From Mytilus edulis (Eukaryota), in contig NC_092353.1 of NCBI RefSeq assembly GCF_963676685.1, positions 27,156,001 through 27,220,000 on the forward strand: a stretch of 64,000 nt of DNA. Reading direction: 5' to 3'. Shown one piece after another: positions 13,101 through 58,100 of the stretch (position 1 is the stretch's first letter; each line of letters begins with the position of its first letter). The notes below the pieces were generated by a model. The model did not search any database, had not been told where the DNA came from, and saw only the letters and a program-made list of their open reading frames with translations. A program made the translations under genes and the position numbers.

Positions 13101-16100
13101 TCCGTCGAAATATTACTGGTATTATCTTATTTGTGAGAAAGGTCGATGCTGATTTGGCGATTGTCGCCTAATTGTGATGAATGCATTGTATAACATATGT
13201 TTGAGTGTTAAAACCACCAGTTTTAGCGTTGGTATAAGTAACAAATGGAAAAATTAAGCTTTACCAATAAATAATGGTAATATCACTTTGATACTTTTCA
13301 TGGTTTGTAATGGCAGAAGAAATTATTATTTTTCCCATGACAAATGTTTTTGATTTTTACCAAACAGTCAAAACGGCAATGTATTTATAATATTTAAACG
13401 TTGATTTTTGATAAATTGATAGGAAAACAGCAGTTTTTAAGAGTACATACAGTAAACTTCAAGTAATCTAGAAAGTTTTAAAGCCAATTTTCAGCTAATA
13501 AATAAATTTTGTTGACTTATGTAATTTCCCTTAACATACATAGCGTTTATTGAGAATGAGTGACATGCGAAATTACTGTTCGGTACTAAATACATTATAA
13601 TAACAAAGAGGTAGTTCGTATATTTCTTTCATATTACAATGAAATAATAACTTTCCTTATCGTTCTACAGTGGAGAACCTATACCTAGAATTGACTATAC
13701 TGAAGAAGAGATTAAAACATGGTTAGTACAAATACTATAAAAAGTTAAGTAACATTTAAGCAAAATAATATTGGAGTTAAACAGATCTTAACAAAGTGTT
13801 CACCGATATGATATATGTCGAATCATTGCTGAAACTTAAATATGTCGTATACAACTTATACACCTCAAAATCGTATTAGCATTAACTTTTAAAAATTACC
13901 GATCTTTACTAAACGGTACCATATTTCTGAAAAAATCTTCATTTCATCAATAAATGTACTCAGTGGTGCTATAGAGGTAAAAGTTTACAAACGTTGAAAG
14001 CTGAAATAAAATAAAAAATACAAAACATAACGGCAAAATCCAGACAAGGAATTGAGCTACCCATGAGGGAGATTCGTTCAATAATTTAAAATTATTTTCA
14101 AAACCTTTTAACTGCATCTTTCAATCAAACTATTATACTCGTATTTCCATTCCAATGCCGAAGTGGTTAACGGGAAACAAAATTACTTTTATAACATGAA
14201 CTAGTTATTCATGCATGGTAACATATATAAAGAAAAAGTATCAGACTACTTTGATGTGCACAGCGTGTTTATTAATTAACGCTATTCATTGCATGCTCTA
14301 TTTTTAAATAATATTTTTTACTTAACATGGTAACGGTAATATTGTAGGGGAACTGTTTTCACGGAGCTGATGAAGCTGTATCCTTCACACGCATGTCGAG
14401 AATATTTAAGAAATATCCCTCAGCTAACAGAATTTTGTGGATATAGGTATGTTATAAAAGAAAAACTTTTTTAATTAATGAGTCACAATTTTGGTGGTAA
14501 CCAAAAGGTTAATTGTAAAAATTGCCTTGTTGGCAACTTGGATTATTCAATTACTATTGACATCATACAACACTTTCACCTTTATTAAATTTAACGACAA
14601 AAAAAGATTATCCCGTCTTTCATATTGTGACCTTTCCATTTCTATGTCACATTAACATTTCAGTAGCCGCCTGCATATGGAGTATAGGTCTCCATGTTGA
14701 TACAATATTCGAGATCTTGCATTTCCTGTATTGATTTCCTTTATAGATAGTTGCTGCTTACAATGAAGCTAACTGAAGGGTTACTAGTGGTAACATTGAA
14801 GTCATTCATTCAAATGTTTTGCAGGCGCAATCATGAATTGATTGAACGTTACAATTGTCGTACCATTTCTCCAATTTTATTTTAGATATAGCATCAAGCT
14901 TGTAGCTACCATGTGAAACACGTGAACAAATCAGTGTACCTTTCTGGTGTACCTAAGATCACTTGGTTGGTTTCGTCTTGCTCAGTATTTAGTTTTTGGT
15001 GTTGTTTTTTGACACTATTTATTTGTCTTTTTATCTTTATTGTGTTTTTCTTTGATCTTTCGTTTTCTCTTTTGTCTTGTGAGTTTGATTTTCAATTTGA
15101 CATCGTCAATCTCTCTTTGTAAGTGTGGAATCGACATTACCTTTTGTGACGTCAAAGTTTACGGGAGCGTCTGTGATATCCATGTAGTAAGCGGACAGTT
15201 GGCGGAAAGTTGTAGTGTTATATGGCTATGACAATTTAAAGTTTATATATATACGTATTATGATTAATCTTATAAAACTATTTCTTACAGGAAAGATAAT
15301 GTGCCACAACTGGAGGATGTGTCGGAATTTTTAAAAGGTATGTTCATTTTTTTTCTCAATCTAACGTGTAGTTCATACCTAAAGTTCCAAGTCCAATAGG
15401 TAAATTGAAAAAAAGAAACTTTGTAAATAAATGAATAACATCAGTTACACTCTTTAGCTTATTAGAAGTTGAAATGTTCAGATTCTCGAATATTATAGTG
15501 TTAGCTTTATACTGATTAATTACTACTTTCAGAGAAAACAGGATTTCAGCTTCGCCCAGTTGCTGGGTACCTAACATCACGTGATTTCCTTGCTGGTTTG
15601 GCTTTCCGAGTGTTTCATTGTACACAGTATATAAGACATAGTTCTGATCCCTTATATACACCAGAACCGTATGTATTTTATTTGTAACTTTACGATATAC
15701 AATATGATTTTCGTGCTTCATGAGACGTGTTTTCTGTTCTTTTGACGGGTTGTTGTCTCTTTGACACATTCTCCATTTTTATTCTTAATTTTATTTCTTA
15801 AAAGTCTGCATTAGGTGTGACTAAATTCTGAAAAAACTTCAAATGTTTGAAAACTCCAAACCAAATGTGTCGTAACATAACCAAATGCAGTTTTTTTTTC
15901 ATCTTTTGGAGCTTATAGCTGACAATTTCCAAATCAGAAACACAGGCTATAACCCTTCATTTAATATCTAATGTTTTAAATTCACAAGTCATTCCATCTT
16001 TCAACATCTAATTTTCGATATAATTGCATTTGATGGTTGTTTTAATTGTATATAAAAATGTGCTATTATGGTATAATTGTAAACGAGACTTTGTTATTTA

Positions 16101-19100
16101 TTTTCGTAAACAGCGAAGTCTCAAAACGTATTGAAAAGACAGAACATGATAAGCACTACTATAATCGTGAACTAAATTTATTATCATAATTTTAATAATG
16201 ACTCAGTATACACAGGGAAAAGTGCCACGCATGTTTTACACATGTTTTACATATGTAAAACATATGTTTGGTAACGCATGGGAAACGTCTTTTTCCTACC
16301 ACGCATGTAAAACGCATGTTTTAAACATGCGTTATTCATGCGTTTTACGCATGAAAAATACATGTTATGTAAAACGCATGTTTTAAACATGCATTATTCA
16401 TGCGTTTTACGCATGAAAAATACATGTTATGTAAAACACATGTTCAAAACATGCGTTATTCGTGCGTTTTACACATGAAAAATATATGTGATGTAAAACG
16501 CATGTTTCAAAATCATGCGTTAAACATGTGTTGTAAGAAACATGTGTATAATATGCGTTTTAAATGATGCGTATAGCATGTGTGTAACAAACATGCGTAT
16601 AATGCATATTTCAAACAAATTATAAGATATTATTCCAAATCATCCATAAAACCTTTGTCAAGTTTACTAGTTCACATTCCATATGTTCCACACAACCAAG
16701 ACGACTTATGTTTACTTTTGAAGGCTGTTCCCTGGATTGCTTTAATCAGTTTAATTTGGACTCTGTTGGATAGTTGTCCAATTGGCAATCATACATCTCT
16801 TCATGTTATTTTGACCACAAATCTCCTTTTGACATGTTTGACAAGCAACATCAGAATCATATATTGCAGACCAGACTTCACTTATTATCAGTCTTTAAAA
16901 TTTTCCTGTTTGAATACACCAATGAACAAAAGAAATATCTGTAACATGATTTTCATGTTTCTAAAACCTTGATCAGGTACATTTTACACTAAGATGATTG
17001 AAAAGACCATGATATGAAATATTTCATGGAATATAAACCGACAATCTTTTGTCTCTGTAGTTTCATTGGCAGTAATACCACAACTCTTTTAAAAAGAGGT
17101 CAAAATTGTCTTAAATGGATTTTGTGGAATGTTGTACATGTATTTGACAATTTTTGTTAAAATGTTACTTACACATTTGTTGACTTATGCATGTAATATG
17201 AAAAGGAAAACCCCAAAAGTGTATAAGATGTTTCCTCTAGCATCAATTTAAATACAATTTTGAAGTTGTGTCCCTTGCCCGTTTGATAATAACCAATGTC
17301 TTGAGAAATCTGAGATTGTATTATTTTTTTAAACATGTTAAATGAAAAATTCAATAAATCCACTTTAAAGAATTTCATTCATATTTTTTTTCTCTGTTGT
17401 CAATTTGTTGCAGAACATAAATTTTTCAAAAAACTTCCAAAAATTTGATTTCACTCTACTTTTATTTTATACAGCAATCTCAAAACGTTACACAACTTTT
17501 CATGTTTTTTTGTTGTTGACATAATAACAATATCAATAGAATGTTCTATCTTCTAAATGTCACTCTTCTTGAAGTTGTCTTCATCTGGAAAAAAAAATTA
17601 CATTCATACATTTAAAAACTTAATTTGATTTATTCCCATATACTGCAAGTTGTTAGTTTTAAAAATAATGACATATCCTCAGTGACTTTTAAACATGCTT
17701 TTCTGTCTCATTTTGGTCTCTTGTGGAGAGTTGTCTAATTGGCAATAATACCACATCTACTTTTTTATGTTTGTCTCCTTTTGATATAACAACATATTTG
17801 AATAAAACTGGAAAGTATTTTATAAATATAAATATTGATTTTGTTATCAGTAAATTAAAACCAAACTAAACATTATTGTTATACACATATGACCAGTTTT
17901 ACAAACTGTTGATACCTATATTTTGGCATTGTACAAGATCATGTCCTTATCCTATGATTAATGGCAGTCTATTCTCTAAATCAATTAGATGTTTACTGAT
18001 TGATATCTAAGTCTTAGACACATGATTTTTGGTTTTACATTTGGCATGAGTTTTGCTAATTTTTAAATTCTTCTTCAATGGTCTCTGGTGGAGAGTAATG
18101 ACTCATTGGCAATCATACCACATCTACATATTTTTATATTAAACTTTAATATATGTAGCTAAAAATTGGAAGCAATTAATATTTGTAATAAAAACAATCT
18201 TGCAATACAAAATGTAACCACAACTGATCTTTTTACTTACAAAATCGAGCAGTTTTTAAAGCGTTAAAACCATAAGAATTAAGTTGAAACTTTTTATTCA
18301 TTTATTTATAGGTAACCAATGAAACTTTAACAACTGCAATGTGTTTGGAAGAGCAAGGATTAAAACATTTAATTTTTTTAAATCTCTCTCCAAATATTAC
18401 ATAAATATAAATATATATTTATACACATACCTACTTTTTTTGCCTACAGAAGTCCTTTCTATGAAAATATCCTTTGGTTTTGCTTGGCTTTCCAGAAACT
18501 CCTGTAACATAAATGAAATAAAATTATGTTTTGAATAAATTCTTTATTAGATGTCATTTTGTACTGATTATGAACATGGTAAAGGTACAAATAGTTTCAA
18601 TTCACTCTCAATGACAGTGCAGGGCCAAAATTAAAAATATGTTTGTTTCCCCTCCCCCACCCGGGTCAAAAATAAGCCCCCGGGTCTAAAAATTATTTTC
18701 CACAAAAAAATCGAAATTATTTTTTTCCTGAAAATAATTTGTTTCCATTTTTGGAAAGTGCTTGAAAGCAGAAGGATTGATAATCTAAATAAATACACTC
18801 AAATTGAGCACAAACAACTGATAAGTGGCCTGGACTGGACAAGTCAAACCATTAATGTGACCATGCTATGACAATCGCATCCAGTTAAAAAAAAAAAAAA
18901 AAAAAAAAGAACCTGCCTTCCTGGTCTGTTTACAAAGGGTAGACCCGGGGGAGGGGAAACAGACATTCTTTTAAATGTGGCCCTGAGGGTTACAGTTAAT
19001 TTCCTAATGCATGTAGAGCAAAACTTTGGTTAGCTTGCTTGCTTTGTTTGTATATTGTACAATCATATTAGGATAACACCCAATTGAATTCAAATATAAT

Positions 19101-22100
19101 ATATATACAGGTTTAACTATGTCTATATATATATATATTGTTTAAAGATGTCAATCTTATTCACAAAGCTTGTATAAACAATTATACAAACAAAGCAAGC
19201 AAGCCAACCAAAGTTTTACTTTGCAAGCATAAGGAAATCAGCTGTAATACATGCCGGATCATCATGTTCCATCCTTTTAGACATCTCTAAATAAAACACT
19301 AGATTCACTATAAATATTTGGTTAATCAAAATGTCAGATTTGTCCATTTTCATAATTTTGTTTTTTTATCTCCATGGGACACAGATGATGCCCCCTCTTG
19401 CATAGGAATACTGTTATAATAAGGGAAATAACTCTAGAACAGTAAAAGTGACCTACCCAAATTTGTACTTGATCTGCATTTAGTGGATATTATCAAGGTG
19501 TGTAAGTTTCATAATATTTGATTAAACAATTTTACCCCATGTCAGATTTGCTCTAAATGCTTTGATTTCAGATATATACATTTTTTGTAAGTCAAAATCT
19601 ATATTTTACCCCAATGTTCAATTTTCCATACAAGGGGGTTAAATTGCCATAGCTGTATTTTGACCTGATGGTCAATTTTCCATGAGGTTCAAAAAACCAT
19701 ATAGGGGCCATCTTGCAATTGTATGTGTTTCTTTTTTTGTTTGTTGTGTATTTACTAATGTTGATTCATTGTCATTGATATATACCATGTATAGTATACC
19801 CCTTATAAGTTATCAGTTGTTTCTCTATTGCAATATATCTTTTTTAATAAATTCTGCTTACTATTTGTAACAGCAGTGAATCCCAAACTCTGTCTCACCA
19901 ACAAGTCTCAGACAAAAAGCAATTCAGACAGAAAGAACTTTCAAGATGTTTTAGTTGAATGTATAGTAGAAAAGTTCAAATTTCAGTTTGGCAAAGACTG
20001 TAACAGCAAAGTTACCTTAATATATAGTAATAAAGTTTCAGCATAAATAATGTATTGAAAGCAAGTTGTCTTACAAAGTTAAGTACATATATTCAATACA
20101 GTAAGTCTGACAAAGAGCAAAAAACAACGGACAATGACGGAAGGCCACGAATTGTTTTCAACACAGCAAAAAAATCTTGCACCATACAAAAAATATACTT
20201 ACCATTGCTGAATTGTACTTGAAACATTTACTAGGCGTCTTCCCTTGCCATTTTCTTCACCATTTGTGGAATTTTTTAAACATCCATGTACATGTACCTT
20301 CCTGACATAGGGTAGGTCAAATTTGATAACTAGCCTATAGGATAAAAAGAAATCCATTTCATAAAAATTTTACAGAAACTATTTTTATATTACTTTACAA
20401 TTACAGACACAGTCAGTGTTCATGTGAAAGCCAAAATGAAGATGATAGATATAAGAAGATGTGGTATGAGTGCCAATGAGACAACTCTTCATCCAAGTCA
20501 CAATTTATAAAACATGTAAAAGTAAACCATTAAAGGTCAAAGTACAGTCTTCAACATAGAGCTTTGGCTCACAATGCACAGCAAGCTATAAAGGGCCCAA
20601 AAAATTACTACTAGAGTAAAACCATCCAATGAGAATTGAGAGAATGAGAACATCAAAACATAGAAAGACACACTATAAAATATTAATTGAAATGGCTGCA
20701 TTCGTGTTCATCCTCAATCTTTATATATGTTATGTGTTATCATCAAATACAACTTACTCTTCAATATTTTTAAGAATGGACACTAATGCGGCCACTTTCA
20801 TTTAAGACAAAAAAACGTCTAAAATTTAACTAAAATTCTAAAATTGTGAAGATTTCAGTAATTTAGCATGACTTAATGATGCTAGTACCCGATATATGTG
20901 TGTTGTATTGTTGAAAACAGCCCACATTTATGTAGCAGTAGCAATCTACTTTCCGATGAATAACTAGAAGTTTACATTTAAACAATTTTGTAAAACTGCT
21001 ATATTTTGGGGCCGAAAAAGGGGTCTTACTGGACCTAATCCTTTGCATGAGGCAATTGCAAACTAAAGTTAACACAAGGAAACAAAAATTGAATCATCAT
21101 CCAATGTAATACTGAAAGATGGACCAACAGTCCCTTAAATTTTTAATGCCTACATAAGGCAGTCTGCATAATGTCTCAGTGGCAAATATTTCAGATATCA
21201 GTATAAACAATTCATGTCAATCAAATAATAAAACTAAGAAGTGTATATTATACTGAACTCACTATATTGGTTGATGGAATATGCTATATTTTGAACAGTT
21301 GTATTAATATTTTATATACATTTTTGTATTAAAACAAACCATAGTATAATGATAACCAGATGCTCCGCAGGGCGCAGCTTTATAAGACCACAGAGGTTGA
21401 ACCCTGAACGTTTGGGCAAGTATGGACACAACATTCAAACTGGATCCAGCTCTAAATTTGGATTGTGATTGAATAGTTGACACAGCATAGGTTTCTGACA
21501 CAGAATGAATGTGGTCTAATGAACTTAAAATTTTTGTTTTGCCTTTGAGCAATTCACTATGCTGTCGAATATAAATCCTCTCAAAAAAATGTTTGAAGAA
21601 ATTTTCTTTTTATTTATGAAATCTGAAATGAGAAAAATTGACCCCCCCCCCCCCCATTTTTTTTTCACATCCCCCTTTCCCTTATTCCAAAACTGATCTC
21701 AATTCAAATTTCTAATGGAGGTTGCAACAATAACTACTCATTTAAATACATCATAAAATATTAAAATGTAAAAAAAGTGCTTGTTATCACTGAATGGTAA
21801 AGATTGTTTTAATTTATCAGTTGGTAGTTAAAGTGAATATACATTGTATATTGTATAAAACAATGATTTAAGTTGATTCAACTACTATTCTGGACAGAGA
21901 AAGATAACTCCAATTGAAAATGTCTTGCTATTGCGCAATTAGATATTTCTTGCTATTGCGCAATACTGTGCAATTGAAAATACTTGCTATTGCACAATAC
22001 TGTGCAATTGAAGATTTCTTGCTATTGCGCAATACTGTGCAATTGAAAATTTCTTGCTATTGCACAATACTGTGCATTTTAAGATTTCTTGCTATTGCTG

Positions 22101-25100
22101 AATACTGTGCAATTGAAAATTTCTTGCTATTGCACAATACTTAATTAATATAATAATTTTGGATCCTGATTTGGACCAACTTGAAAACTGGGCCCATAAT
22201 AAAAAATCTAAGTACATGTTATATTTAGAATCAGCATATCAAAGAAGCCAAAGAATTTAATTTTTGTTAAAATCAAACTTTAATAGTTTAATTTTGAACC
22301 CTTTGGACTTTAATGTAGACCAATTTAAAAACGGGACCAAAGGTTAAGAATCTACATACACAGTTAGATTCGGCATATCAAAGAACCCAAATTATTCAAC
22401 TTTTGATGAAATCAAACAAAGTTTAAATTTGGACCCTTTGGGCCCCTTATTCCTAAACTGTAGGGACAAAAACTCCCAAAATCAATCCCAACCTTCCTTT
22501 TATGGTCATAAACCTTGTGTTTAAATTTCATAGATTTCTATTTGCTTATACTAAAGTTATGGTGCGAAAACCAAGAAAAATGCTTTTTTAGGCCCCTTTT
22601 TGGCCCCTACTTCCTAAATTGTTGGAACCAAAACTCCCAAAATCAATCCCAACCTTCCTTTTGTAGTCATAAACCTTGTGTCAAAATTTCATAGATTTCT
22701 ATTTACTTAAACTAAAGTTATAGTGCGAAAACCAAGAAAATGCTTATTTGGGCCCTTTTTGGCCCCTAATTCCTAAAATTTTGGGACCAAAACTCCCAAA
22801 ATCAATCCAAACCTACCTTTTGTGGTCATAAACCTTGTGTTAAAATTTCATAGATTTCCATTCACTTTTACTAAAGTTAGAGTGCGAAAAACTAAAATAT
22901 TCAGACGACGACGACGTCAACGTGATACACCAATAATATAAGACCAAAATTTTTTTTAATTTTTGCGGTTGTTTAAAAAGTGATTCTATCAAGTGCTACA
23001 ATATTATATATTGCAGTGAGGTTAAAATCCCTGTCATTTATTCATCATCCACACAGTTACTTATCCGAGAAATTTTTTTTTCTATCATACCGGTATACAT
23101 GTATATGTTATGATATTTTTCTAAGACCGGTCACCATCCACCAGAACTTGCAGTCGTCCTATAAAAATACAACTTCCTATCGTGATGCTTCTTAAAATTT
23201 GATGGGTAATCTTTAGATCAGTTTTATGTAATGGGACAATAAATCCTTTAGCCCATATTTCAGGAAATTTTCCTGTTGTTAATACATTGTTAAATATCTT
23301 TACAAAACATTTAAGCAGATAAGATTGGCTGCGCTTGAGCATCTCATTTATTTAAGAATTGAATGCTCTTTTTTGTAAATTTATTGGGGTGTAAAAGCGT
23401 TGACCGAAGTACATTTTGTATGAAAGCGCGGAAGCGCTTCATACTAAAAATGTGCGCACGGTCAACGCTTTTACAACCCTATAAAGTTACAAAAAAAGCA
23501 TTCAATACTTATAATTACATTTTTACCTATAGGATCATGAAAACACGCCTTTTATCAAGTTTTTATTTCATTTACCTGTGCACTTTATTGTGGGGCCTCG
23601 TGTCATCATGAATGAAAAGTTGCATTGTGTAATGCAATTGATTAAGGAATATCACGAGATTGCTAGTTAGCCAATCAGAATAACGTATTATAATGAAACA
23701 TACATCTAATGTAATTATTATGGAGTCAAAGCTGCTTAATTTATTGTTTTTTAGTGGTTCACAGGGGCTTGTTTAGTAGGCCAGACGAGCTTTTACTGTC
23801 ACAAGCGATTTAATAAAAAAAATGACAAAATGTCATTGAATTTCTTGAATTCCAAATTTTTTAAAAGTTTAAAGAAGAAATTTTTAACTGCACAATATTG
23901 CGCAATAGATTTGTAAGATCTTGACATTTGCTTAGTGTCAGAAACTCATATTACATGTATGTCAAAAATTTGATCAGAATCCAAATTCAGAGCTGTATCA
24001 AGCTTGAATGTTGTGTCAATACTCATGATACTAGCCCCAACTATTCATGGTTCACCCTCAGCGGGTCGTAGAAAGCTGCTCCCTGCAGAGCACCTGGTTC
24101 TGTAATTTTATAATCCAATTCTCTGAAAATTTTAATTTGATGACATTCTTAAATAAGATGCCCATGATTTATGAATGTGTTCTTACCAGTCACCCCAGAT
24201 TGAGAAACCAGACCAGGATATTCATTTTATGCCAGGTCACTTGTTTTCACAGTCCTCTAGTCAGGTGTAATGTATTATTACTACTTAGTACAAAATGTAT
24301 TACTTATAGTTTCGTAACTCTTTCTCCCGAGACCGCCACCTGCCATGTTATTATTCTTGTCAAGACTTTGATCTTGCCAGACTTCCAAACCCTATTGGAC
24401 TCTTTGTCCCTAGCTAGGAACTATAAGTATGATGTCACTCATTGGGTTCAGGTGTTAGTTACAATAACATTAACAAGTAGACTAGCTAGCGGCAGCCCCA
24501 CTGTATATTTATGGTATTGTATATAACTTATATTCAACCATATATATATGTCTTTTAAATAAACATCTTATTGTTTACGTGCTTTGATAGTTTATCTCAG
24601 AACTTGGGAAGACAACAGGAATATTACGAAGCCAGTGTTAACTTCACTCCGGTTTCACTCGCTACCAAAAAATGCATAGTTATCAGGTTCTACTTTACTG
24701 TCTTAACTTAAGTTCGTGCATGTCTTTATAATTTACTCAAACTGGATAAATCACAGAAGATTGATTCGAGTGAAGCTCTACTGTGATATTCAAGTTTGGT
24801 ATATGTTTACCCCGTTATTGATAGGATTTCAAACTCCTGAGGCTGTGCCTGTGGATAAATAAATCAGTTTTGGAAATGGCATATAAAAATCCTTCGTGAA
24901 ATGTTAATTGAATAAAATATTAAAGTTGAATTCTTACCCATCTTGTCTTTAGTGTCCTAGATTGAAGATATCCTACATTGTCCTAGCTGCATTTCATATC
25001 TTCCATAAAATTTGCGTTTTGCTTCACGAATCATGATGTCAATATCAGTGTCGTCTGTCTGAACGCTCGTTTCCGGGTGAACCGTACGGGCTAATATTAA

Positions 25101-28100
25101 ACCAAAGGCGAAGCATTAAAAATTCCATTTAAACGGCATTAAATGATTGAAATCCATGCGTAGATTTATAAGTAATAAAAACAAGTAAACATGATTAATA
25201 ATTGTATGTAACCGATTGGACCTTAAAAAAAATATATGAATGTGGATTCCGTAATTTTTCCTCTGAGTCTCCATGCCAGTGTAATGGTATTTCCCGCGGT
25301 TATTTTTGTACAACTTATAAATAAAATACGGTATGACTATCACTTGCCACTATGTACCTAACAGAATGAACAATTTTGCAAAGACTCACTCAGTGTAAGT
25401 ATATCGATACGGTGAATCAATTAACATGAAAAAAACTCTGTCATTTCTCATGTTTCTAGATAATTTTACTGGACACAAAACACACGGGCACCTGGTAATT
25501 AATTCGTCACCTTATTAAAGTCAAATCGGCACCTTTTTTCAGGACATTTCTGCAATTGATTTTTTAACTGTCACCTGATATTAAAAACGGTTTTCATCTT
25601 TAATTTGAAAGTAATTATTGGTTCTCTTCTCTACTGAAGTGTATCCATATAAAGGATAAAAAGAAGAGAAAACACTTTTAAAAATTTTATCATTGATTTT
25701 TTTTGTTGATAATCTGCCTTTCCTGATCTTTTCAGTGGCGGATCCTTAACTTTTCCTAGGGGGGGGGGGGGGGGGGGGCGCTGACTGACCTAACGGGGGC
25801 CCGCTCCAGTCATGCTCCAATGAATTCCCTATATAATCAACCAAATTTTTCACACAAAAGGGGGAGGGCGGGCCCCCCAGCCCCACCCCCTGGATCCGCC
25901 TATGCTTTACCTGTATACTTGAAAACAATAAATACTATTGTTTGCTAGTATTGTGCATGCAGTTGTCATGAAATAAAAGTTCATTATAATAAATATAGGT
26001 TCCAGTAGGAATTAACAGATCTATTGTGGCTCCATTGATTGTTTATACAGAGAGCACACAAGCTGATCATGTAAATTTAGTTAAATGTCCAATGGTAGAT
26101 GGAGAAACAGCACTGTATATAAATAGAGCACCTAGATTCTACATGTGAAAATATGGTTCCTTTTTCAAAGGAGGTTCAAGGATCAGTTCAATTATATTAG
26201 ATAGTTTATAAAACAATTATGCATAGGCGGATCCAAGGGGGGGACGGCCCCCCCCCCCCTTTTCGTGGGAAAAATTTGGTTGATTATATAGGGAATCATT
26301 GCAGCATGACTGGACCGGGCCCCCCCTTAGGTCAGTCAGCGGGCCCCCCCTTAGGAAAAGTTCTGGATCCGCCACTGTTATGGGAGTCTTCAACAGTTCA
26401 CTTGCAAAACATAATATTAATTTTGGGTATGGACTTAACTACTGCGGGTTACCCAAATTAACAAGGGACAGATTTGACTTGTTATGCCATATTAACTATC
26501 AAAGGTGGCTTAGGTGCCCATTTGACCAGGTTTCCAAACATGGCAAAATGACTAGAATTCAGACACAGTGTTAAATAAATATAAGATATATATATACAAT
26601 TTTGTGTTGGAATGCACACTACACTGGCAGCTTTATTAACTAAGCTACATTAGATTGTAACTTGAGTTATATTCCTTGTGACTAATTATACATGTGTTAA
26701 AAATAATACAATTTTGAATAATAATATTGAAAATAAGGAGATCAATGTAGTATGATTGCCTATGAGATTACTATCTAATAATGTCCATATGAACTGGATT
26801 TAAACATCTATATAGGACACCTTAATACCTTCAACAATGAACAAAGCTCATACTGTCAGCTACAAAAAATGTATAACAGGCCATCAAGGCTTGACATGAC
26901 AAAATGTAAAATGATTTGCCAAAATAAATCAAATATGGCAGACTGCATCACACAACAACTAAATTTCATCCGGACTTGGAACAGGCATAAATAGAATGTT
27001 GGGACTGTTGTGTAAACAGCACAAAAGAGGAACAAAGTGGTGAAATCGGTTAGAAATTGTTTTGATTCATTGAATTGGTACAAAGCTTAAAAAATCTAAC
27101 ACGAAGACAAACAATCAAAACTTAATAGTACTTTCAGTTGAAAGCTCATTAAAAGCTAATTATCAGAGAAATTCGTTTTACAATTTTTGTTTAACATGTT
27201 TAATTATCTATAACTGATATATTTTTTATTAAAGTTTCCAAGCAAGTCAATACATGCAATAACAAAAAACTTTTGGGACAGTAGACGCTGTTTAAAAAAC
27301 GTGACCAAAGAAAAGAAAAGGAAATGTACTTGTAATCGACACTGGAGAAAAAATGGACTCTTCAGGTAAGAAGTTTTATTCTGCAATAACTTTTGTTTAA
27401 TAGTTAATCTGTTTTTGAATAAAAGAATGTGTAAAGTATATTTTAGTGGGACAGCATCCCAACAAACAATAAATCAGAAGAGATATCAAGTGGTAAATAT
27501 TTTGCTTACTGAATCCGACAAAGTTAATACCAAATTTGCCATGCTATGAATTATCCTTCATCTGAAGAAGGTATGAATATATGCAACAGGAATTTTACAG
27601 AAAAAATCTGTCCTTTATTATGTCTATATGCTAGCCGCAAATTTTTCACTGCATTTGCATTAGGTTAGTACTTTTTCATCTTTTTAAAATTTTGTCTTGC
27701 AAAACAACACATTGCAGGGATAAAGTAAATGCAACAAGTTTTCATTTTATCCAGTTTTTTTCATGTTTGCACATTCTCTTTCCCATACAATGTTTTGGTG
27801 AAGTTAAATAATAGTAGTTTGTACACATGTTGCCACTTGGAAATATAAATGATATGGAAAATAGCATTGTGAGCTCTCTCAAGCCTATGTGAGTTGTAGG
27901 ATTTTAGAAATTTTAGAAATTTGTTCATAAGTAGGGGGCCACTGACTGCCTAAGAGGGCGCCCGCTCCGGTCATGCTTTAGTGATTCCCTATATAATCAA
28001 TCAAATTTTTACCTGGCCCCACTCTAAATCCACCTTTGCTAAGACCAGTTAAATAATCAGCTTTGGTCAATTATGCATTGGAAAAAGGAAGGTGTTTGAC

Positions 28101-31100
28101 TTTTTCTAGTTTAAAAATTAAGTGCTAAGAAACTATTTTTACAGGAATTAATAGTTCCCCTTTAAAAGGGAAAGTATAATGAAAATTGCATTGTCAATCT
28201 CAATCCTATTGTTCAACTTCATGTTTGTTTTTATAATTTTTTTATCAAATTCAAAGGTTAGTTTGGCAAGCCAGAGTCATGGATGAGTTCAATAAATGTT
28301 GCAGATTAGCTTTTTTGCAGGAGTTAAGCTGCTTTAGAAAACTGCATTTGTTACTTATTTCAAGTATAATAACTTGTTGATTTTGCGCATTTTTTTCATA
28401 AGAATGTTCAGTATATATTTGCTTTTCGTGAACTTTTAACTTTCAGTTACATTCAGTTCTTGTGAAATTCAACATCTCTTATATAAACATCACAAATGTC
28501 TTTTTACTTAATCACCTTTTTTATGTTTACAGAAGAAATTGTCACACGGAAATGTCTTGGGCAAATTAAAAAGGAGAAGTAACTCTGCTAGGAAGCAGTT
28601 CCAGTCATTTGTAGCAACAGGACTGTGACGAATAGAACTTTAATATAAACTGAATCCAAATATAGAATTTACAAAACTTGTGTCAGATAATACTCTCATG
28701 CTTCTATTGGAGGACATCAATGATGGGAAGTAAAGGAAAAGACAATAAATGACAGCATATCAAATATCACAATGTATATTTAGTCAGTTAACACACTAAT
28801 CCATGTACATACTTTACAGCATTTCATTTTAACCATATGTAAATTTTGTCTATTCAAGCTTAACAAAATGCTTTGAAATTAAAATATTAAATATTTTAGG
28901 CAGACATGTTTTTGTAATTTTCATTTATTTTTCAAACTTTCAAGTTATTACATTCTTCAGTGGCGGATCCAGCCAAAAGCCCATTTTTCAAAGGGGTTTC
29001 CCCAACCAAGGATAAAGAAGGGGTTCCAATCATGTCTTTCATTTATAAATTGTTAATTTCCACTACAAAACTAAAAGAAAATAAGCCAAACATAAAAAAT
29101 CAGTCATAAAAAAAATATAATTTTGAAATTCATGTAAAACGCATGTAAAACATGTATTTTACATGAGTTTGTATTTACACATGTTTTACACATGTGAAAT
29201 ATTTCATGCGTTTTGTAACGCATATTTAATATATGTTTTTGCACGCCTGTTATACACATGTTGTAAAAAACATGCGTTAAACGCACAAAAAACATACGTT
29301 TTACACACGTTTTCTTTACCATGCGTGAAACATGCGTGGCACTTTTTGCTGTGTATAAGCCAGTAATTATTTGCATATTAGCTGTTTGTGACTGTCTAAC
29401 ATATGTCTGCGTGTTGTAGTGATTGTTGCCACGAATTACTTGGACACATGCCACTATTAGCTGATCCGAGCTTTGCACAGTTCTCACAAGAATTAGGACT
29501 AGCGTCACTTGGTGCCAGTGACGAGGCAGTACAGAAATTAGCTACAGTAAGTTGACATAATAGCTATTTGTGATAAAAAAAAAAAAAAAACCAGCAAGGC
29601 GAAAACATTTTTTGGACATTTCTATATAAAAAAAATTGATATCTATCGTGAAAAAAACGAGAGATTTGTAATTTTTGGGCGATCAAAGCTTGAGTATGAC
29701 TCTACATAAACCAAGGATCTGCCACTGATACTTGTATTTTGTATATCTTCATGTACGTCTGTTTTATGCATTGTAAAGATTATTAATTTTTTCCAGCTTT
29801 ACTTCTTTACTGTTGAATTTGGATTATGTAAACAAGACGGACTTATGCGGGTATACGGTGCTGGACTTCTGTCTTCTATTGGAGAACTTAAGGTAAGACA
29901 CTAACTTGACTTGACCCGACCGGATTCACTTAGTAGGCGTTTATATAACTTCGACTTTTTTTAAATACTTCCATTGTATTTTTTTTACCTGTATTTGTAT
30001 TTCACCTTAAATCGGTTAACTAGTTCTATATGATGCCTGTGTATGATATTAAATGAACGTTCTTATTAATTATATTTGCTGATTCGTGTTTACTTTTAAT
30101 CATCATCTCACCATCTCAATATACTAGAAGTTCAAAGACATTGTCATATTAGATTACTATTTTCTGGACACATCATCAGTGTAACTGTAAGACCATAGTG
30201 AACGCTCTTTGCTGGACACATCATCAGTGTAACTGTAAGACCATAGTGAACACTCTTTGAACTGATGCGAATACTCACTAAATCTTAGATTACTATTTTC
30301 TGGACACATCATCAGTGTAACTGTAAGACCATAGTGAACACTCTTTGAACTGATGCGAATACTCACTCAATCTTACTTTTTCTGAGTAATATTTCTAAAC
30401 ATTATTTTTCAAGCATGCATTAACTGACAAGTCCAGGAAAATACCATTTGAACCAGTTCGAACATCTAAACAGGAATGTCTTATAACCACTTTTCAAGAT
30501 GTTTACTTTTATACCGAAAGCTTTGAAGAGGCAAAGGACAGAATGAGGTATACCTACATTTCAGTTTAATCAAATTATTAGACATGTATGTTACTAAAGA
30601 ACTTCTTGTTTTGTTTCCTTTTGTGTTTTTTGCATTCTTGGTTTCAAAATGAGTGTGACTTTTATAACAATACTGATAATACTTTGGTATCTAATATTCA
30701 CTGCAACAGGTATTGTATTACTTATTTTTAGAAGTATGACACATGAATAGTTGACATATTATTAAAAGATACAGGTTTTTTATTTTTGTATTATTTTTTT
30801 TAGATATTTCAATATTCAATATATTATATAATGTACTATATCATAAGTGTAAAATACAAGCTTCTGTGCGAAGACAGCGTATATCTCAAATAGCTAGCAA
30901 ACAGGTAGTCGTACGTTTGGAAAGTCAAATGCTTGAGCATCAAATCATACGACCTTATAAACAACAGTCATAATCGTACACAACGTCTAACATTGATGAT
31001 ATTGTATGTGTTTGACTTCACTACGTTAAGTTTGACTTTTCCGAACCGATGAATAAAGGCAACAGTAGTATACCGTTGTTCAAAACGCGTAAATCGATGG

Positions 31101-34540: not shown

Positions 34541-35859
34541 GTTTAACTTGCATGACCAACACGACCGATACCACATATGCAGCAGGATGTTCTTTACCTT
34601 CTATCTAGAGCAAACTGAAACCTAGAATATTTTATCGACATATATGGACAATTTTCAACAGACAATATGCGATCTTTTTTTACTCAACAGTGCACCTTTT
34701 TTATCAGCTTGTTCCATTATATGTTTGAGGCATTCATGGTCTTATAAATGTAAAAAGGAAGCTGGAACTATCATTGAACTTGATGATTATCGCTATAAAG
34801 ATGATGCTTTCTAGCTGAATCAATCAATCAATGTTCTTCCGACTATGCTGATTGCATCTTTTACATTTAACATACATAATAAAATATCAAAGATGCCGTC
34901 ATGTCTGCTTCATATCTTGAGTACCAATTAGAAATTGACAATGAGGGTTGTTTGAGAACTAAAATAAAATATATCATTTCTAATTTCCTATTGTAAATGT
35001 GAAAACATTTTTTTCATTTTAAACTTTAACATTTGGTCAAGTTTATTGAAGAGAGGCGGGAATACCAAAGAGATAATTTATATTATATCATCACAAGTCG
35101 ATTACAAACCACCAATACTATGGCATAAAATGATATAAAAAAAGGTCCAATAGACAAACAACAGTTTAAGAGTGTATTTCAAGCGAGAGGTTTTGCAAGC
35201 TATAATATCAGATTTAATCCACCATTTTCTACGTAAGAAAATGCCTGTACCAAGTCGGTAATAAGACAGTTATTATCCATTTGTTTGATGTGTTTTGATC
35301 TTTGGTTTTGCCCTTTGATTACGTACTTTCCGTTTTGAATTTTTCTCTGATTTTTTTTACTTTTGCAACACAGAGACATAACATAGAAAACTGAGGACTA
35401 AAAACAGAAACCCAAAGGAAACGAAAGGGTAAGCAGTTCCTGATCCACACGCGAAACCCGTTGAGTTGCTTCTATAATAGTAAAACAGTCAGTGATGAGT
35501 ATCATTCGGTGATGTCACATTTACCTTCGATATCTTTAGTGAAAGGACATCATCTATATCGCCGAAAGTGAAGTTAACAGACAATTAAAGCTCCTTTTCA
35601 TCATTCATAGGTATCATGGCTTCATGAATTATACCTAATACATTGTATGAATGAAAGGATAGTCTGCAAAAAGAGGAGAACAGTTATAGTTAGAAAATTT
35701 GCATCACCAATGGTTAATGAATGTGGTGATGTCCTAAACAATTATGACAACATTCATAAAAGCCAGGGATGTATAAGAACCGAAACAACTCAAATGCTAT
35801 TTGATCAAAAAGGACTTAAAAATAATACTTGTAGCTAAATTCATGTTCAATTTGCCCGA

Positions 35860-37141
35860 CAGACTTGCTCTCAATAATGACGACTTCAGTATGTATATTA
35901 ATGAAATTTATCCTGTTGAACTTACTTTAAATAAAGCTAATACTAACAATGACCACTGCCCTTTTTTCGATCTTGATATCTATATCACTAATGGAAAGCT
36001 GAATACTAAAATTTATGATAAAAGGGATGATTTTTCATTTCCTATCGTTAATTATCCGTTTTTAGATGGTGACGTTCCCTTGTCACCATCTTACGGTGTT
36101 TATATATCTCAACTTGTACGATTCGCTCGTGTATGTAACAATGTTTTAGATTTTAACGAGAGAAATTTATGTATTACTGAAAAATTATTACACCAGGGTT
36201 TTCGATATCACAAACTAGTCAAAACATTTACTAAATTTTATCCTCGGTATAAAGACATCATTCGTAAATATAGCTCAACATGCAGACTTCTAATACGTTC
36301 AGGTATTTCACATCCAATTTTTTATGGTAATATTCTTTATAAAGCACAAAGGTGTCAGTATTCACCTCAGAAACTTACAAAACCTTTAAATAGACTTATT
36401 AAGAAGGGATATAATTACGATACTGTTGTCAAGTCATTAAAGATTGCATATTTTGGCGTTAATATTGAGTCACTGATAAGGTCTTTGCATCGGAACTAAA
36501 CACATTATTTTTTTTAAAAAAACAGTTGTTGGCATGACACGGGTTATGTTCTTCTCATATATGTTATGATGGTATGATACTAAACCCCTAACGGGAAGGA
36601 TTGTGCCTGATGTTCATATGATGAAATCATAATCTTTCAGTCAGTTTAATTGAAGTCTGGAGCTGGCATGTCAGTTAACTGCTAGTAGTCTGTTGTTATT
36701 TATGTATTATTGTCATTTTGTTTATTTTCTTTGGTTACATCTTCTGACATCAGACTCGGATTTCTCTTGAACTGAATTTTAATGTGCGTATTGTTATGCG
36801 TTTACTTTACTAAATTGGTTAGAGGTATAGGGGGAGGGTTGAGATCTCACAAACATGTTTAACCCCGCCGCATTTTTGCGCCTGTCCCAAGTCAGGAGCC
36901 TCTGGCCTTTGTTGGTCTTGTACTATTTTAATTTTAGTTTCTTGTGTACAATTTGGAAATTAGTATGGCGTTCATTATCACTGGACTAGTATATATTTGT
37001 TTAGGGGCCAGCTGAGGGACGCCTCCGGGTGCGGGAGTTTCTCGCTGCATTGAAGACCTGTTGGTGACCCTCTGCTGTTGTTTTTTATTTGGTCGGGTTG
37101 TTGTCTCTTTGACACATTCCCCATTTCCATTCTCAATTTTA
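35860..37141 (+). mobile_element. 5'-truncated Penelope-like retroelement (RT C-terminus intact, ORF to 36499) plus 3' tail
   Basis: LALNNDDF...YPVELTL...FFDLDI...TKIYDKRDDFSFPIVNYPFLDGDVPLSPSYGVYISQLVRFAR is the PLE RT palm/thumb pattern; truncated just after the catalytic DD. Decayed relatives at 14590-14850 (+), 34700-35000 (+) and 38990-39310 (-). Confidence 0.8.
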
Positions 37142-47458: not shown

Positions 47459-49187
47459 AACAAGAGGCTCTCAAGAGCCTGAATCGCTCACCTGAATTTT
47501 TTTGGTTTAATCTCTCATCAATGATTATTTTGGCTTTTCAATTTATTTAAATGTTCTTTGAATCGTCCTATTTTCTTCAAAAGCAAAAAAAAATCATTTT
47601 CTCCTATGTTCTATTTTAGCCATAGGAGCTATGTTTCTTGACATACAAGGAAATGAAATATAAAATTTATACTAGATACTCTGAAACTCTGAAACTCATT
47701 TAGCCTAAGTTTGGCTGAAATTGATACAGCAGTTTCATAAGAGAAGATTTTTTAAAGTAAGTCAACATGATGAACAAATTGTGAAAAAAGTCTTTAAAGG
47801 GCAATAACTCCTAAAGAGGTCAATTGACAATTTTGGTCAAATTGACTTATTTGTAGATCTTACTTTGCTGATCATATTTGCTGTTTACAGTTTATCTTTA
47901 TCTATAATAATATTCAAGATAATGACCAAAAACTGCAAAATTTCATTAAAATTACCAATTAAGTGGCAGCAACCCAACAATTGGATGTTTGATTCATCTG
48001 AAAATTTCAGGGCTGATAGATATTGACCTAATGAACATTTTTACTCCATGTCAGATTTGCTCTTAATGCTTTCGTTTTTGAGATATAAGCCAAAAACTGC
48101 ATTTGACCCCTATGTTCTATTTTAAGTAACGGCGGCCATGTTTTTTGACGGATCAAAAATCAAAGCACACACTTTGTGCAGGATAATCTAAGGAACAACC
48201 ATGCTAAGTTTTAACCAAATCCATTCAGTAGTTTCAGAGGAGAAGATTTTTTAAAGTTAGCAAATATGATGAACAAATTGTGAAAAATTGTCATTAAAGG
48301 ACAATAACCCCTTAAGGGGTCAATTGACAATTTTGGTCATATTAACTTATTTGTAGATCTTACTTTGCTGATCTTTTTTGCTCTTTACAGTTTATCTTTA
48401 TCTATAATGATATTCAAGATAATGACCAAAAACTGCAAAATTTCCTTAAAATTACCAATTAAGTGGCAGCAACCCAACAATTGGATGTTTGATTCATCTG
48501 AAAATTTCAGGGCTGATAGATATTGACCTAATGAACATTTTTACTCCATGTCAGATTTGCTCTTAATGCTTTCGTTTTTGAGATATAAGCCAACAACTGC
48601 ATTTGACCCCTATGTTCTATTTTAAGTAACGGCGGCCATGTTTTTTGACGGATCAAAAATCAAAGCACACACTTTGTGCAGGATAATCTAAGGAACAACC
48701 ATGCTAAGTTTTAACCAAATCCATTCAGTAGTTTCAGAGGAGAAGATTTTTTAAAGTTAGCAAATATGATGAACAAATTGTGAAAAATTGTCATTAAAGG
48801 ACAATAACCCCTTAAGGGGTCAATTGACAATTTTGGTCATATTAACTTATTTGTAGATCTTACTTTGCTGATCTTTTTTGCTGTTTACAGTTTATCTTTA
48901 TCTATAATAATATTCAAGATAATGACCAAAAACTGCAAAATTTCCTTAAAATTACCAATTAAGTGGCAGTAACCCAACAATGGTTTGTTTGATTCATCTG
49001 AAAATTTCAGGGCTGATAGATCTTGACCTAATGAACATTTTTACTCCATGTCAGATTTGCTCTAAATGCTTTCGTTTTTGAGATATAAGCCAAAAACTGC
49101 ATTTGACCCCTATGTTCTATTTTAAGTAACGGCGGCCATGTTTTTTGACGGATCAAAAATCGAAGCGCACATTTTGTGCAGGATATA
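47459..49187 (+). repeat. HINE-like element with about three near-identical 500-bp tandem units
   Basis: AAACAAGAGGCTCTCAAGAGCC start; AAAATTTCAGGGCTGATAGA at 48001, 48501 and 49001. Confidence 0.85.
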
Positions 49188-54414: not shown

Positions 54415-55140
54415 GTAAGTTTTCATTTTATTATTGGATAGTGTACGCAATATTCCAGGTAGTGTCGTTTACAAGGTTTAATCGTAGACAAACTTTATTA
54501 AACTTGATAAAATATTCCAAAGAAAGATGACTTTGATAAACATGTCCCCTAGTGACTTAATCAATACATAATGCTTCAATAGATCTGCACTAACTTCATG
54601 ACTAAGTTATTGCATTTTGGTTAAAGTTTAACACAGTCCCAAATAAAAGACACTTTGGAAAGTATCATTAATAAAGGTTTAAGATAACCATCAGATGTCA
54701 ACTTTTAAAAGTAAACAGGTTTTATAGACATATTTACCTGTCGTTAGCATGGTTAGTCAACTGTGGTTTTATATTGTTTGTACATTATTCATTCATTATT
54801 TATAAATAACTAAATTACCATATGATGAAAAAATTATTGTGTACACACATATTAGAGGACAGGTATTTTAACTTCGGTTCCATTGAAACATTTTAATCAG
54901 CTATTTCAACAATACAGAATTTAAGTAAATATGTAAATTCATTCATATGACTAAAAGGTTAAAAAGTCACGGGTTATCTTGAATGGAATATACTATATAT
55001 AGTAAATTCATTTTATGTAACAGTACATATACAAAAAAAATTCCAAAAGGAAATTCCATGCTTCGGCCAGGTATCAAGCAAATCGATATCAATTTAATTT
55101 AATTTGGTTAATTATAATTTTAGAGAGAAGAGAACCAAGA

Positions 55141-58100
55141 ATGCCTTCATCATTAAACAGAAGTCGCCCGCTGAGACAAACCTGTCCTATAACTAGAAAG
55201 GAAAGCGAACAGTTATTTGATCTTTTTCTTCATCTGCAATCAAATCCAACAGAAGAGGAAAAACCGACAAATGATAATTGTTTGAATAGCGTTGAAAAAG
55301 AGGACTGTAACTGTGTTGAGGACCTTCCTGAATTCAAGCGTTCTGATAGTTACAGGAAAGCTACACAAAGATTTTCGCTTGAGGATGTTGTAGAAACCAT
55401 GACTTTTAAGAAAGAGGATTATGATCACAAGAAATATAAGTCTCTGCCAATTGACAGAACATCGAAGATCACTCATACTGAAAACAAATCAAAGTTGCAA
55501 GTAGGGAGAAAAAATAAACTTAATAGACAGAAATCTGGCACTGTTCCGTCGTCTGATAGTGACAATAACACAAGTCCACCTGAAAACCGAAAGAAAAAAA
55601 GTGTCGTGCAAAGGACTAAGGAAAGAATCATATTCATACTCTGGAAAGATAAGAAACATGGTGATAAAAATATATCTAAGGAATCTAAAAGGACACCGAC
55701 CCCTCATCATGGTAATGATAGTGTACTGAAAGTTAACAACAATAAAGGTCAAATATCAACCACTTCAAACGATGCTGAGATTATCGAACGAAAGAAAAAT
55801 AATATTAGTATCAAAGCAAGAACGTCTGAAAGTAAGTTTATTATCTTATTTTGCTTATATAACAATGTTACATACAGATTTCAATTATATAAGTACAATA
55901 CGTGGAAAAGAAAGATGTGCTTTGTCCGAGGCTTTGTCAATGAAATATAAAAGTAGATATCATACATAATGTGTACTTAGGATATATTTTTTATAGCCTA
56001 AAGGTTGTAAGTACATCTAAATGCACACAAACACGTTTTCTTGAAGTACAATATATTATGTCTTTATGTATGCGAAATCAAAGCGAATGATGTAATCGTA
56101 TTTCACTCCTAAAATTCAAATTCAAATTAGAAAATAATTTCATTGTATTTTGCTTTGGTTAAAAGCACATGCAGGGTTAGACTTTTTATTTATATATTCT
56201 AAGTATTTGATACCATATAACTTCCAGATTCCAAAGGATCACATTCAAACCAACAAAGTCCCACTCAGAACATGGCACCAAATTCTAAGTCGCCCGCGCG
56301 TGACAGAAGATACAAAACTCAAGTCTCACGTGAAGAAATTACTAATATGTTCGAAAAATGCCTATCGTCTGCCGAAGTTAAAGAGGAACCATACACATTT
56401 CCCGCTAAAAGGATCCACAAGAGAAAAGACTTCAGTCCAGGTAGAGATATTTCATTTGCTGATGGAATTAAAGATAAGAAATCTGGACTTAAATTAGACC
56501 TAGGTCCTTTTACTAATGGGTTTAAAGTAGAATCACATACAACAGTAATTCAGGAGGACAAAACCATAGTAAATGATGGAACAACGCGGACTTTGTTAAC
56601 TGATAGAAGGACAATTGAGAGAACGTTCTCTTTGGAAGTGGATGGTTGCAATGATGATGAAGTTGATGGTCCAATGGGTTCTACTTTGAAGGAGGTAGAT
56701 CGATTACAAACAGGTATATATCTGAACATGTTTTGGTATCAAGTAAAGCCTAATAAAATGAGAATTCTACTTCGTAAGTAGTCCTGCTAAATTTGTATAT
56801 TATTTCAAAGCGTCTAAGAGATGTAAGGGACATAGAATTAAACATCAATCCAACACTTGCTTATATGTTTATTGACTTATCATGGCTACAATGGAGGCCA
56901 GGTAATGCTTAAAGTAATCATTATAATCTACTATCCTCTTTTGTTTGGCCATATGCAGTCTTACACTTAACATTTGTACATTTCATTCTATAACGTCTCC
57001 TTCATTTGTACAGGAGACGAATCACAAGAGCCTTTAACATCGTCAGAGCAGGAAAAAATGATAGAAGAAATAGCTAGAAGACTAAATAGAATAGCTGACG
57101 ACTGTGTCCAGCGCATGGGAGCTGGAGGAACTTCACCTCTCCAAGGCGCTACTGCTGGACCTTTGTTGTCACCCGCGTCTCAAGGTATGGTTATGCTACA
57201 TATAAGCCCCTCTCCGATTTAGTGTTTCCTGTCTCTCTACCTCCTTTGAATGCCTACCCTCACACTTTAAATGTGCATTTTGGGTGAAGTACCGAAAATC
57301 CATATATTTAAGGTCTAGCACCGTTTAAAGACTAGAACCGTCCCATATATAGTTTTTCTTGTAAAATTTTTAGAAGATATTTAAACTGCCTACCTTTCTT
57401 TCTTTTTTTTGGGGGGGGGGGGGGGGCGTCTTATATTATCATTTTTTTATATCACCCTTTTACTCTTTGACTTTCAACGTAGTTCTTATGACGACACTTA
57501 AAACAAATCAGTTACTAATACAAGAAAAACATTTTTAATACTTGTGGAAAATATGCAATTATGCAGTAGTACACAGTCAGCTTTTGAAAGTTGTATTCAC
57601 CATCTAAAAACGCTTGTATCGTAATTTTATGTGCGTTATTTTTATAAATTAAATGTTTACATGAAATATTTGTATATTAAACTATACTATTCAACTGAAA
57701 TTTAATCTAAATATTATAAAATCGATGAATCAAAAAATATTTTAGTCATGTGCATACATTGCATACATAATATGTGAGGCGTTAAAATATTTCCTTTAAA
57801 AAAATCCACATCCCAGCTGGTATTGATCTGGAAAATATTTGTGTCACAATTACATCAGCTTTTCTCTTAATTGGAAAAACCAAGGTTTTCGGAGAAGTTT
57901 GAAATACTGGGACGTCCGATTCCAATTCTGTTAATAAATTATCCCTATTTCATTATGAATGCAAAATTACCATAATGGTTTATTAAAAAAACGTAAATCA
58001 AAATTGTAGATTTTGTTGAAAATCAATTGTTAAGCAATCCTACAACCCCCCCTTTTTTTCCCCATCATTTGCAATTCATCTAGCTCTTATCCTTTTGCTT

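Follow-up and report, generated by a model that had tools for sequence, protein, structure and literature searches.

Introduction

DNA transposons of the CMCT clade are defined by CA..TG ends together with target-site duplications (TSDs) that measure 2–5 bp, and in the accessible text of PMC12730594 the clade includes a TA-targeting lineage named ESTA, whose description comes from rust fungi and whose defining feature is its transposase. The same text gives TSDs of 8 bp for Zisupton and 7 bp for Kyakuja, both belonging to the Kyakuja-Dileera-Zisupton (KDZ) group. CACTA-related elements of animals also make 2-bp TSDs, as the available parts of two reports describe for SmTRC1 (PMC1636069) and Spongebob/EnSpm-4N1_HM (PMC4298943); these have CCC ends, measure 2–6 kb, encode or derive from a Transposase_21 gene and include truncated non-autonomous copies that give spliced transcripts. 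Plant CACTA elements combine a CACTA tip with a 3-bp TSD, carry captured gene fragments and require their subterminal repeats in cis (PMC8978399, accessible sections). Here we analyze a window of 64,000 nucleotides from Mytilus edulis (assembly GCF_963676685.1, contig NC_092353.1, positions 27,156,001 to 27,220,000 of the forward strand), in which an intron of the tryptophan hydroxylase gene (TPH) is filled by a 13,143-bp element with CACAG..CTGTG ends. It is one copy of a family whose members are large DNA transposons lacking an enzyme of their own; the copy in the TPH intron is polymorphic, and the family is likely to move by cut-and-paste into TA targets through an EnSpm-like (CMCT-clade) transposase supplied in trans. 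Positions refer to the window unless another locus is named.

Results and Discussion

The element extends over 16211..29353, and its left terminal inverted repeat (16211..16236, plus strand) matches the right one (29328..29353, minus strand) at 24 of 26 positions, or at 26 of 29 and 30 of 34 if successively longer spans of the two arms are compared. TATA flanks it on the left (16207..16210) and, read from the sequence, also on the right (29354..29357). Directly inside the ends we found arrays of a quasi-palindromic core with the sequence AC-RYRY-G(T/C), which was counted on the two strands and is often spaced by 11 bp, with 15 cores in the first 500 bp (array at 16227..16600), eight in the last 400 bp (29135..29335) and two in the 12.2-kb interior. 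A 62-bp tandem unit is repeated 3.5 times at 16305-16522 inside the left array (Tandem Repeats Finder). By analogy to the CACTA layout (PMC8978399, in its accessible sections) these arrays are putative protein-binding sites.

Both neighbouring exons belong to the catalytic domain of TPH. The upstream coding exon (15533..15668, plus strand), which ends in ..DPLYTPE-P in phase 2 and is followed by a GT donor at 15669, finds tryptophan hydroxylase 1 as its best PDB match (chain residues 125-168, E 6e-23), and so does the coding exon with the HELLGH motif (29420..29546, plus strand; residues 170-210, E 1e-19), the two being consecutive in this protein. The intron between them (15669-29419, GT..AG) has 13,751 bp; it shrinks to 608 bp once the element is taken out, or to 604 bp if one TATA goes with it, and only 66 bp separate the right end of the element from the acceptor. 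An initial annotation had proposed from the letters a CACAG-terminated element of 13.1 kb between two TPH exons, with subterminal units of about 62 bp on the left, a remaining intron of about 600 bp and this short distance to the acceptor; its boundaries are exact to the base and the other points hold as well.

Searching the genome with each end revealed facing end pairs on many chromosomes. A 25-nt end pattern had 90 matches genome-wide against none for its reversed control and a second pattern 94 against six in the control; the element ends occur beyond chance. Together with the window we compared 20 loci, of which 17 hold both ends, one has ends facing the same way and two miss an end in the DNA examined. 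From end to end the 17 paired copies span 4.9–40 kb, with 14 of them at 8–19 kb, and they occupy 16 independent sites with different flanks on nine large contigs, since two copies share their flanks. Some copies have been duplicated together with their flanks, namely a pair on C7 and a cluster on C14. In the loci aligned against the window element the interiors are colinear with it, substitutions among 12 aligned copies amount to 1.0–2.9%, and an older layer of the family exists at 83–90% identity. The window copy and a copy on C8 have an insertion at 23348-23715 and a gap at 27157 in common, and because such sister pairs share derived insertions and deletions, whole units must have moved together with their passengers. 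The presence of both ends at 17 of the 20 loci and the mostly shared interior therefore identify one element and not two MITEs (miniature inverted-repeat transposable elements): it is a single mobile unit of a recently spread family, in line with the large non-autonomous element and the full-length copies elsewhere that had been anticipated.

One could still imagine two unrelated MITE ends around ordinary intron DNA, a segmental duplication or an assembly artefact, as a 107-bp MITE does exist in a sister family and the C7 and C14 copies are indeed duplicated with their flanks. However, paired ends at 16 sites with colinear interiors and different flanks, an empty site in one sequencing run (X7) and the filled junction in contigs of another (X1) speak against all three, and we regard this explanation as refuted, with practically no probability left. 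The initial annotation had named separate MITEs, with neither an empty allele nor another full-length copy, as the outcome that would contradict it, and the paired copies and the X7 allele show the opposite.

The only long frames in the family copies are those of nested insertions, labelled by inspection as hAT, Helitron-like and reverse transcriptase. In the loci L061-L062, L081-L085 and L086-L087 they comprise a hAT-like frame of 718 aa, a Helitron-like insertion that spans 24 kb and holds a frame of 1325 aa, and reverse-transcriptase pieces. A literature search for CACAG ends with TA targets or for EnSpm elements with 2-bp TSDs did not return a description of this family, which may be catalogued in Repbase or Dfam.

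The TATA duplication that was proposed as the TSD is correct for this site with its 4 bp but does not describe the family, where TA is the longest duplication in the flanks of 16 of the 17 copies and TATA that of the window copy only. Intact copies of common repeats were found that lack exactly two nucleotides at the insertion point, clearly so for copies F, H and K and in one of two hits for copy I, while copies A and O were ambiguous and nine of 15 copies had no bridging hit. From the TA in 16 of 17 copies and the intact host repeats being 2 nt shorter we conclude that TA is the TSD of the family.

Four sequencing runs (X1, X3, X4 and X7) were then compared at the right junction, without using contig depths as copy numbers. 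Run X7, which has the same organism label as the best-matching run but comes from a different study, contains a 337-nt contig at single-copy depth that leads from the left flank directly into the right flank with one TATA. This is exactly the empty site that had been predicted, and because it stands in the contigs of another individual, the insertion is polymorphic and segregating. X4, from another organism label, has two contigs whose alignment breaks off at 29353/29354 and which continue with about 30 other letters; we read these as an empty site as well. A contig of X3 leads from the left flank to 29376; its allele lacks the element and is 22 bp shorter. The missing piece corresponds to 29354-29375, begins exactly at the insertion site and shows a 3-nt microhomology; it would be either an excision scar or an independent deletion. 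In X1 the filled junction is part of one unbranched contig of low depth and no empty allele was seen, although the assembly may derive from this run, which is then not independent. The suggestion that the insertion might be hemizygous thus found no support from this run. Ends of the family with other flanks are present in all four runs. Compared to the single TATA of the X7 allele, the 4-bp duplication would be explained if the two ends used different TA steps, if repair slipped or if the target haplotype had an extra TA.

For a TIR transposon one expects inverted repeats, a TSD with an empty site and dispersed copies with different flanks, and all three were found. The ends (CACAG..CTGTG) and the duplications (2 bp in the family, 4 bp at the window site) are those of the CMCT clade. 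A DDE transposase with C(2)C and H(3-4)H motifs, which also marks this clade, was seen neither among the frames of the element nor, as part of a partner with such ends, among 45 Transposase_21 hits. With regard to EnSpm/CACTA in the strict sense, the subterminal arrays of short direct and inverted repeats are present but the tip is neither CACTA nor CACTG and the TSD is not 3 bp. Chapaev elements make 4-bp and Chapaev3 elements 3-bp TSDs, and TA as the family TSD argues against Chapaev, which we rejected since a 4-bp duplication occurs in only one of 17 copies. The TSD speaks against membership in KDZ/Zisupton as well, as TA is not a duplication of 7–8 bp. Hence the original assignment to the CMC superfamily (EnSpm/Chapaev) stands for the ends and arrays, which are of the CMC/CMCT kind, but not for the Chapaev TSD or the strict EnSpm tip and TSD. 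Our best reading is a non-autonomous CMCT (EnSpm-like) family with TA targets, whose lineage within CMCT cannot be placed because the element has no transposase.

Among the known systems ESTA shares the TA duplication and the CA..TG ends with the mussel family but is defined by its transposase, which is missing here (PMC12730594, accessible text). SmTRC1 and Spongebob/EnSpm-4N1_HM resemble it as animal elements with 2-bp TSDs, truncated non-autonomous copies and spliced transcripts from these, yet they differ in their CCC ends, their smaller size and their Transposase_21 gene, according to the available parts of PMC1636069 and PMC4298943. Compared to plant CACTA elements the family has CACAG tips and TA targets, and no captured gene was identified in it (for the plant side PMC8978399, accessible sections).

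The interior of the window copy is a mosaic, with 32% of the element length matching repeats that occur in at least three of 107 unrelated loci. A small inverted-repeat insertion with 39-nt arms (18620..18985) is absent from the 19 other loci, and as only the window copy has it, it was likely acquired after entry into TPH. A high-copy repeat with tandem units of 35 bp and 159 bp (21354..22981), which we take to be non-autonomous and Helitron-like, occurs in up to 19 unrelated loci, and copy comparison assigns a further nested repeat (23347..23719) to the window and its C8 sister copy only. As the initial annotation had stated, there is no transposase frame: none of 107 stop-to-stop frames of at least 44 aa (103 from the window element and four from a segment of another copy) reached the Pfam cut-off. 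No Rfam family matches the element either.

Transcription was followed in stranded RNA from another organism label, with the direction taken from the usual library convention, which agrees with the splice signals. From a central point, transcription of the family proceeds outward on both strands. On the minus strand, antisense to TPH, a predicted first exon (24938..25070, its limit at 25070 being approximate) with a GTAAG donor lies in the bin 24576-25236, where reads by mate direction are 2.95/4.05/2.28 versus 0.25/0.17/0, and a further exon (20203..20334) is framed by AG/GT signals and supported at 20313 by 9/29/5 reads versus 0. A 2,246-nt RNA contig aligns to the element over 20202-20336 only. 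The contig with this exon, from run X19, has about 2 kb more 5' sequence outside the aligned piece, which may stem from another copy spliced to a host transcript. On the plus strand, which is the strand of TPH, a predicted first exon (25267..25394) has its 5' end at 25267, where six of nine molecules end in one of three raw-read runs, and a GTAAGT donor that is kept in the aligned copies. It is followed by a predicted internal exon at 27243..27365 (21/43/41 reads versus 1/0/0 at 27282) and by a predicted last exon at 28533..28750, drawn from stranded reads, with AATAAA at 28744. Plus-strand transcription runs from 25267 through 27282 to the right end, and one RNA contig covers 28558-29356 and then continues for 125 nt past this end into the flank of another copy. 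Between the two first exons, where the read direction flips from the bin 24576-25236 to the bin 25237-25897, we place a putative two-way promoter (25070..25267).

Conserved exon frames were considered for these transcripts and rejected, as indels and stops occur across the copies: most copies have a 3-nt insertion with a stop in exon 20203..20334, older copies have frameshifting indels in exon 24938..25070, and in exon 27243..27365 a +1 insertion is found in copies O, U, M and T and the frame is broken in older copies. A weak search with the latter exon gave no protein homologue. A stretch at 19.87-19.99 kb that was first taken for an exon is a common repeat instead. We read the internal transcripts as probably decayed or non-coding.

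One might alternatively explain the element as a Pack-type carrier, whose middle would be captured host DNA, for example a two-way promoter together with pieces of genes or a small gene, that has been spread as cargo. The outward transcription of both strands from about 25070-25267 would fit, and so would the unrelated interiors of sister families with the same ends, the four plus-strand exons, chosen by eye, that join in frame in the window copy, and a 475-bp piece with the minus-strand exon that recurs at 82–83% identity on C11, in three loci arranged in tandem that have no element ends. However, DNA searches with three interior pieces gave family copies, older remnants and a common repeat but no single-copy source gene, the exon frames are broken across copies, and neither the Pfam search nor the weak homology search pointed to a captured protein. 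We therefore consider a captured middle unlikely. The "cargo" of the initial annotation is made up of the nested repeats and of family-specific transcribed sequence that has no conserved frame, and the pieces searched gave no captured host gene.

The same CACAG tips, TA flank and CATG/ACGT-type subterminal arrays, each with unrelated interiors, define at least four sister families (for example at L101-L110, L176-L195 and L258-L268). Three of them measure about 16 kb, 8–18 kb and 10–14 kb, whereas only one end could be located for the fourth, which has ACATATGT arrays. The two end patterns together give 171 distinct chromosomal CACAG ends. The 107-bp MITE mentioned above (L195, G000:C12:66567542) consists of two sister-family ends with TA on both sides. 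In three sister families none of 175 frames exceeded the Pfam cut-off (none of 282 including the window element), protein similarity between families was at chance level only, and 11 further sister-family loci (of 18 planned) had no transposase in their first 8–15 kb. About 2.6 kb inside a sister-family end, a frame (L263:2827-3429) presumably resembles a MACPF/perforin domain and may be a host gene or a passenger.

As candidate partners we examined the EnSpm-type loci of the genome. Ten Transposase_21 loci were inspected over 20 kb, two of them to 40 kb, and rejected, as none has CACAG ends or CATG arrays. Two autonomous elements were resolved, both with Transposase_21 and long near-perfect terminal inverted repeats: one on C5 (L275+L198+L199+L276) of 31.9 kb with a TAA duplication and one on C7 (L277+L196+L197+L278) of 22.6 kb with a TTA duplication. 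An apparent end in the C7 element turned out to be an exon-intron border. Given these two sizes, 13 kb is ordinary in this genome. A third Transposase_21 family (C13/C6) has a CAC tip and a terminal array of palindromes with a TCGA core. The autonomous Transposase_21 elements thus share their large size and the CAC tip with the mussel family, and the C13/C6 family also its subterminal palindrome array, but because of the CACTA tips and 3-bp TSDs of the two resolved elements and the TCGA instead of the CATG core they are not plausible partners.

Several points weigh against an EnSpm-like mover in trans and have to be set against the ends, arrays and TSD. The autonomous partner that had been considered was not found: of 45 chromosomal Transposase_21 hits, not one is located in the first 60 kb inward from any of the 171 CACAG ends (eight hits on unplaced contigs were excluded), although transposases that are split into exons or divergent can escape a domain search. 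The EnSpm elements that could be resolved begin with CACTA, two of them with 3-bp TSDs, and the class of our family was assigned from its ends, TSD and layout. A Plavaka search gave no hit, which is no evidence of absence since its control was silent as well. The only transposase inside family sequence is of the KDZ type, in one damaged copy. With respect to the transcripts, the RNA reads are not assignable to the window copy given their different organism label, and the splice joints were predicted and not read from RNA.

This KDZ gene suggests a different mover, a CxC4-type KDZ transposase with a Josephin domain, for which the damaged copy at G000:C5:7.458-7.480 Mb would be what remains of the autonomous parent, the window family being derived from it with its middle replaced. 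In fact, this copy has the right end of the family (89% over 546 bp) and pieces of its left interior (87–95%), with a broken multi-exon gene for CxC4 (PF18717, E 4e-7) and Josephin (PF02099, E 2e-10) in between. The KDZ genes have several exons and carry a Josephin-like domain behind the catalytic part, as seen at L119-L120 (C5:7.458-7.478 Mb) and in relatives at C2:13.20 Mb, C7:38.61 Mb and on C11; the locus on C2 has an open frame of 626 aa and that on C7 one of 519 aa, and many broken relatives are clustered on C11. We do not claim the KDZ-Josephin fusion as new, as Josephin appears in the transposon literature. KDZ/Zisupton elements are also large, but just one KDZ locus out of 15 is located inside a CACAG end, four others (40–50 kb each) have no such ends or arrays, and the C5 copy lacks the left end, with its right end joined via a truncated repeat as after a deletion. 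Moreover, the DNA leading into the KDZ gene had no second copy among the 40 of 150 candidates scored, and the TSDs of Zisupton and Kyakuja are longer than TA, as far as PMC12730594 is accessible. The KDZ transposase is probably nested in the damaged copy, and we give a KDZ mover little credence.

We prefer an EnSpm-like transposase acting in trans. According to this model, which is in part drawn from the CACTA analogy, the transposase or a partner protein would bind the short palindrome arrays inside both ends, the CACAG tips would be paired, and the whole unit of 8–19 kb would be moved together with its nested repeats and pasted into a TA target. The 4-bp duplication at the window site probably arose because each end used its own TA step within TATA, or else because repair slipped. 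The two outward-facing spliced transcripts would be what is left of genes of the element itself, decayed or non-coding, and splicing most likely still removes the long intron, so that the loss of TPH message would be partial at most.

A partial loss of TPH message is nevertheless plausible, since mis-splicing would lead to a stop before the HELLGH exon and the minus-strand unit is antisense to TPH. Compatible with the preferred model, the insertion could even represent a functional TPH allele, in which acceptors and polyA sites of the element cut transcripts before the iron-binding exon, antisense RNA interferes or the promoter reads into the last exons. For each of five candidate acceptors inside the element, joining the upstream exon to it would bring a stop within 1–42 codons, before HELLGH, 27 AATAAA sites lie on the plus strand of the element, an RNA contig crosses the right end into a flank, and the intron has grown from 0.6 to 13.75 kb. 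Against such an effect, the host donor and acceptor are intact, and in X1 the filled allele alone was seen, at low depth, which fits tolerance if this animal is homozygous. In four RNA runs no TPH RNA was seen, the exons being almost without depth. The intact splice sites and the run with the filled allele only speak for tolerance of the insertion, and a functional allele is a possible but rather doubtful explanation.

Elsewhere in the window, frames of another gene lie downstream of TPH (55021-59499), of which the frame at 59143-59499 presumably resembles the end of a Bcl-2-family domain. We take a fragment at 35777-36499 to be reverse-transcriptase-like, and a tandem array of about 500 bp repeated 2.9 times with 96% identity is located at 47727-49185.

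Conclusion

In summary, the transposon biology of this locus is ordinary, namely that of a non-autonomous family of known design. A far-reaching account, in which the mussel harbours a clan of at least five CACAG/TA families (about 170 ends) moved by an uncatalogued animal transposase lineage (ESTA-like or CxC4-KDZ-Josephin), with a two-way promoter of its own in every unit and a segregating low-serotonin allele of TPH, appears improbable to us. What the analysis exposes is a clan of large, recently active, enzyme-less families awaiting a mover, in a bivalve, a group whose repeat libraries hold few curated CMC families, two of them in the accessible part of PMC10294476. Insertions of such a size have been proposed as a source of molluscan hemizygosity (10.1101/2020.09.15.298695, as far as available). 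For TPH the insertion is a presence/absence allele that is defined to the base and can be typed by PCR, turns a 0.6-kb intron into one of 13.75 kb and introduces a putative two-way promoter, acceptors on the same strand and polyA sites into the gene. As spawning, oocyte maturation, gill cilia and catch muscle are under serotonin control in bivalves (PMC8913902, in its accessible text), any effect that this allele may have is directly testable.

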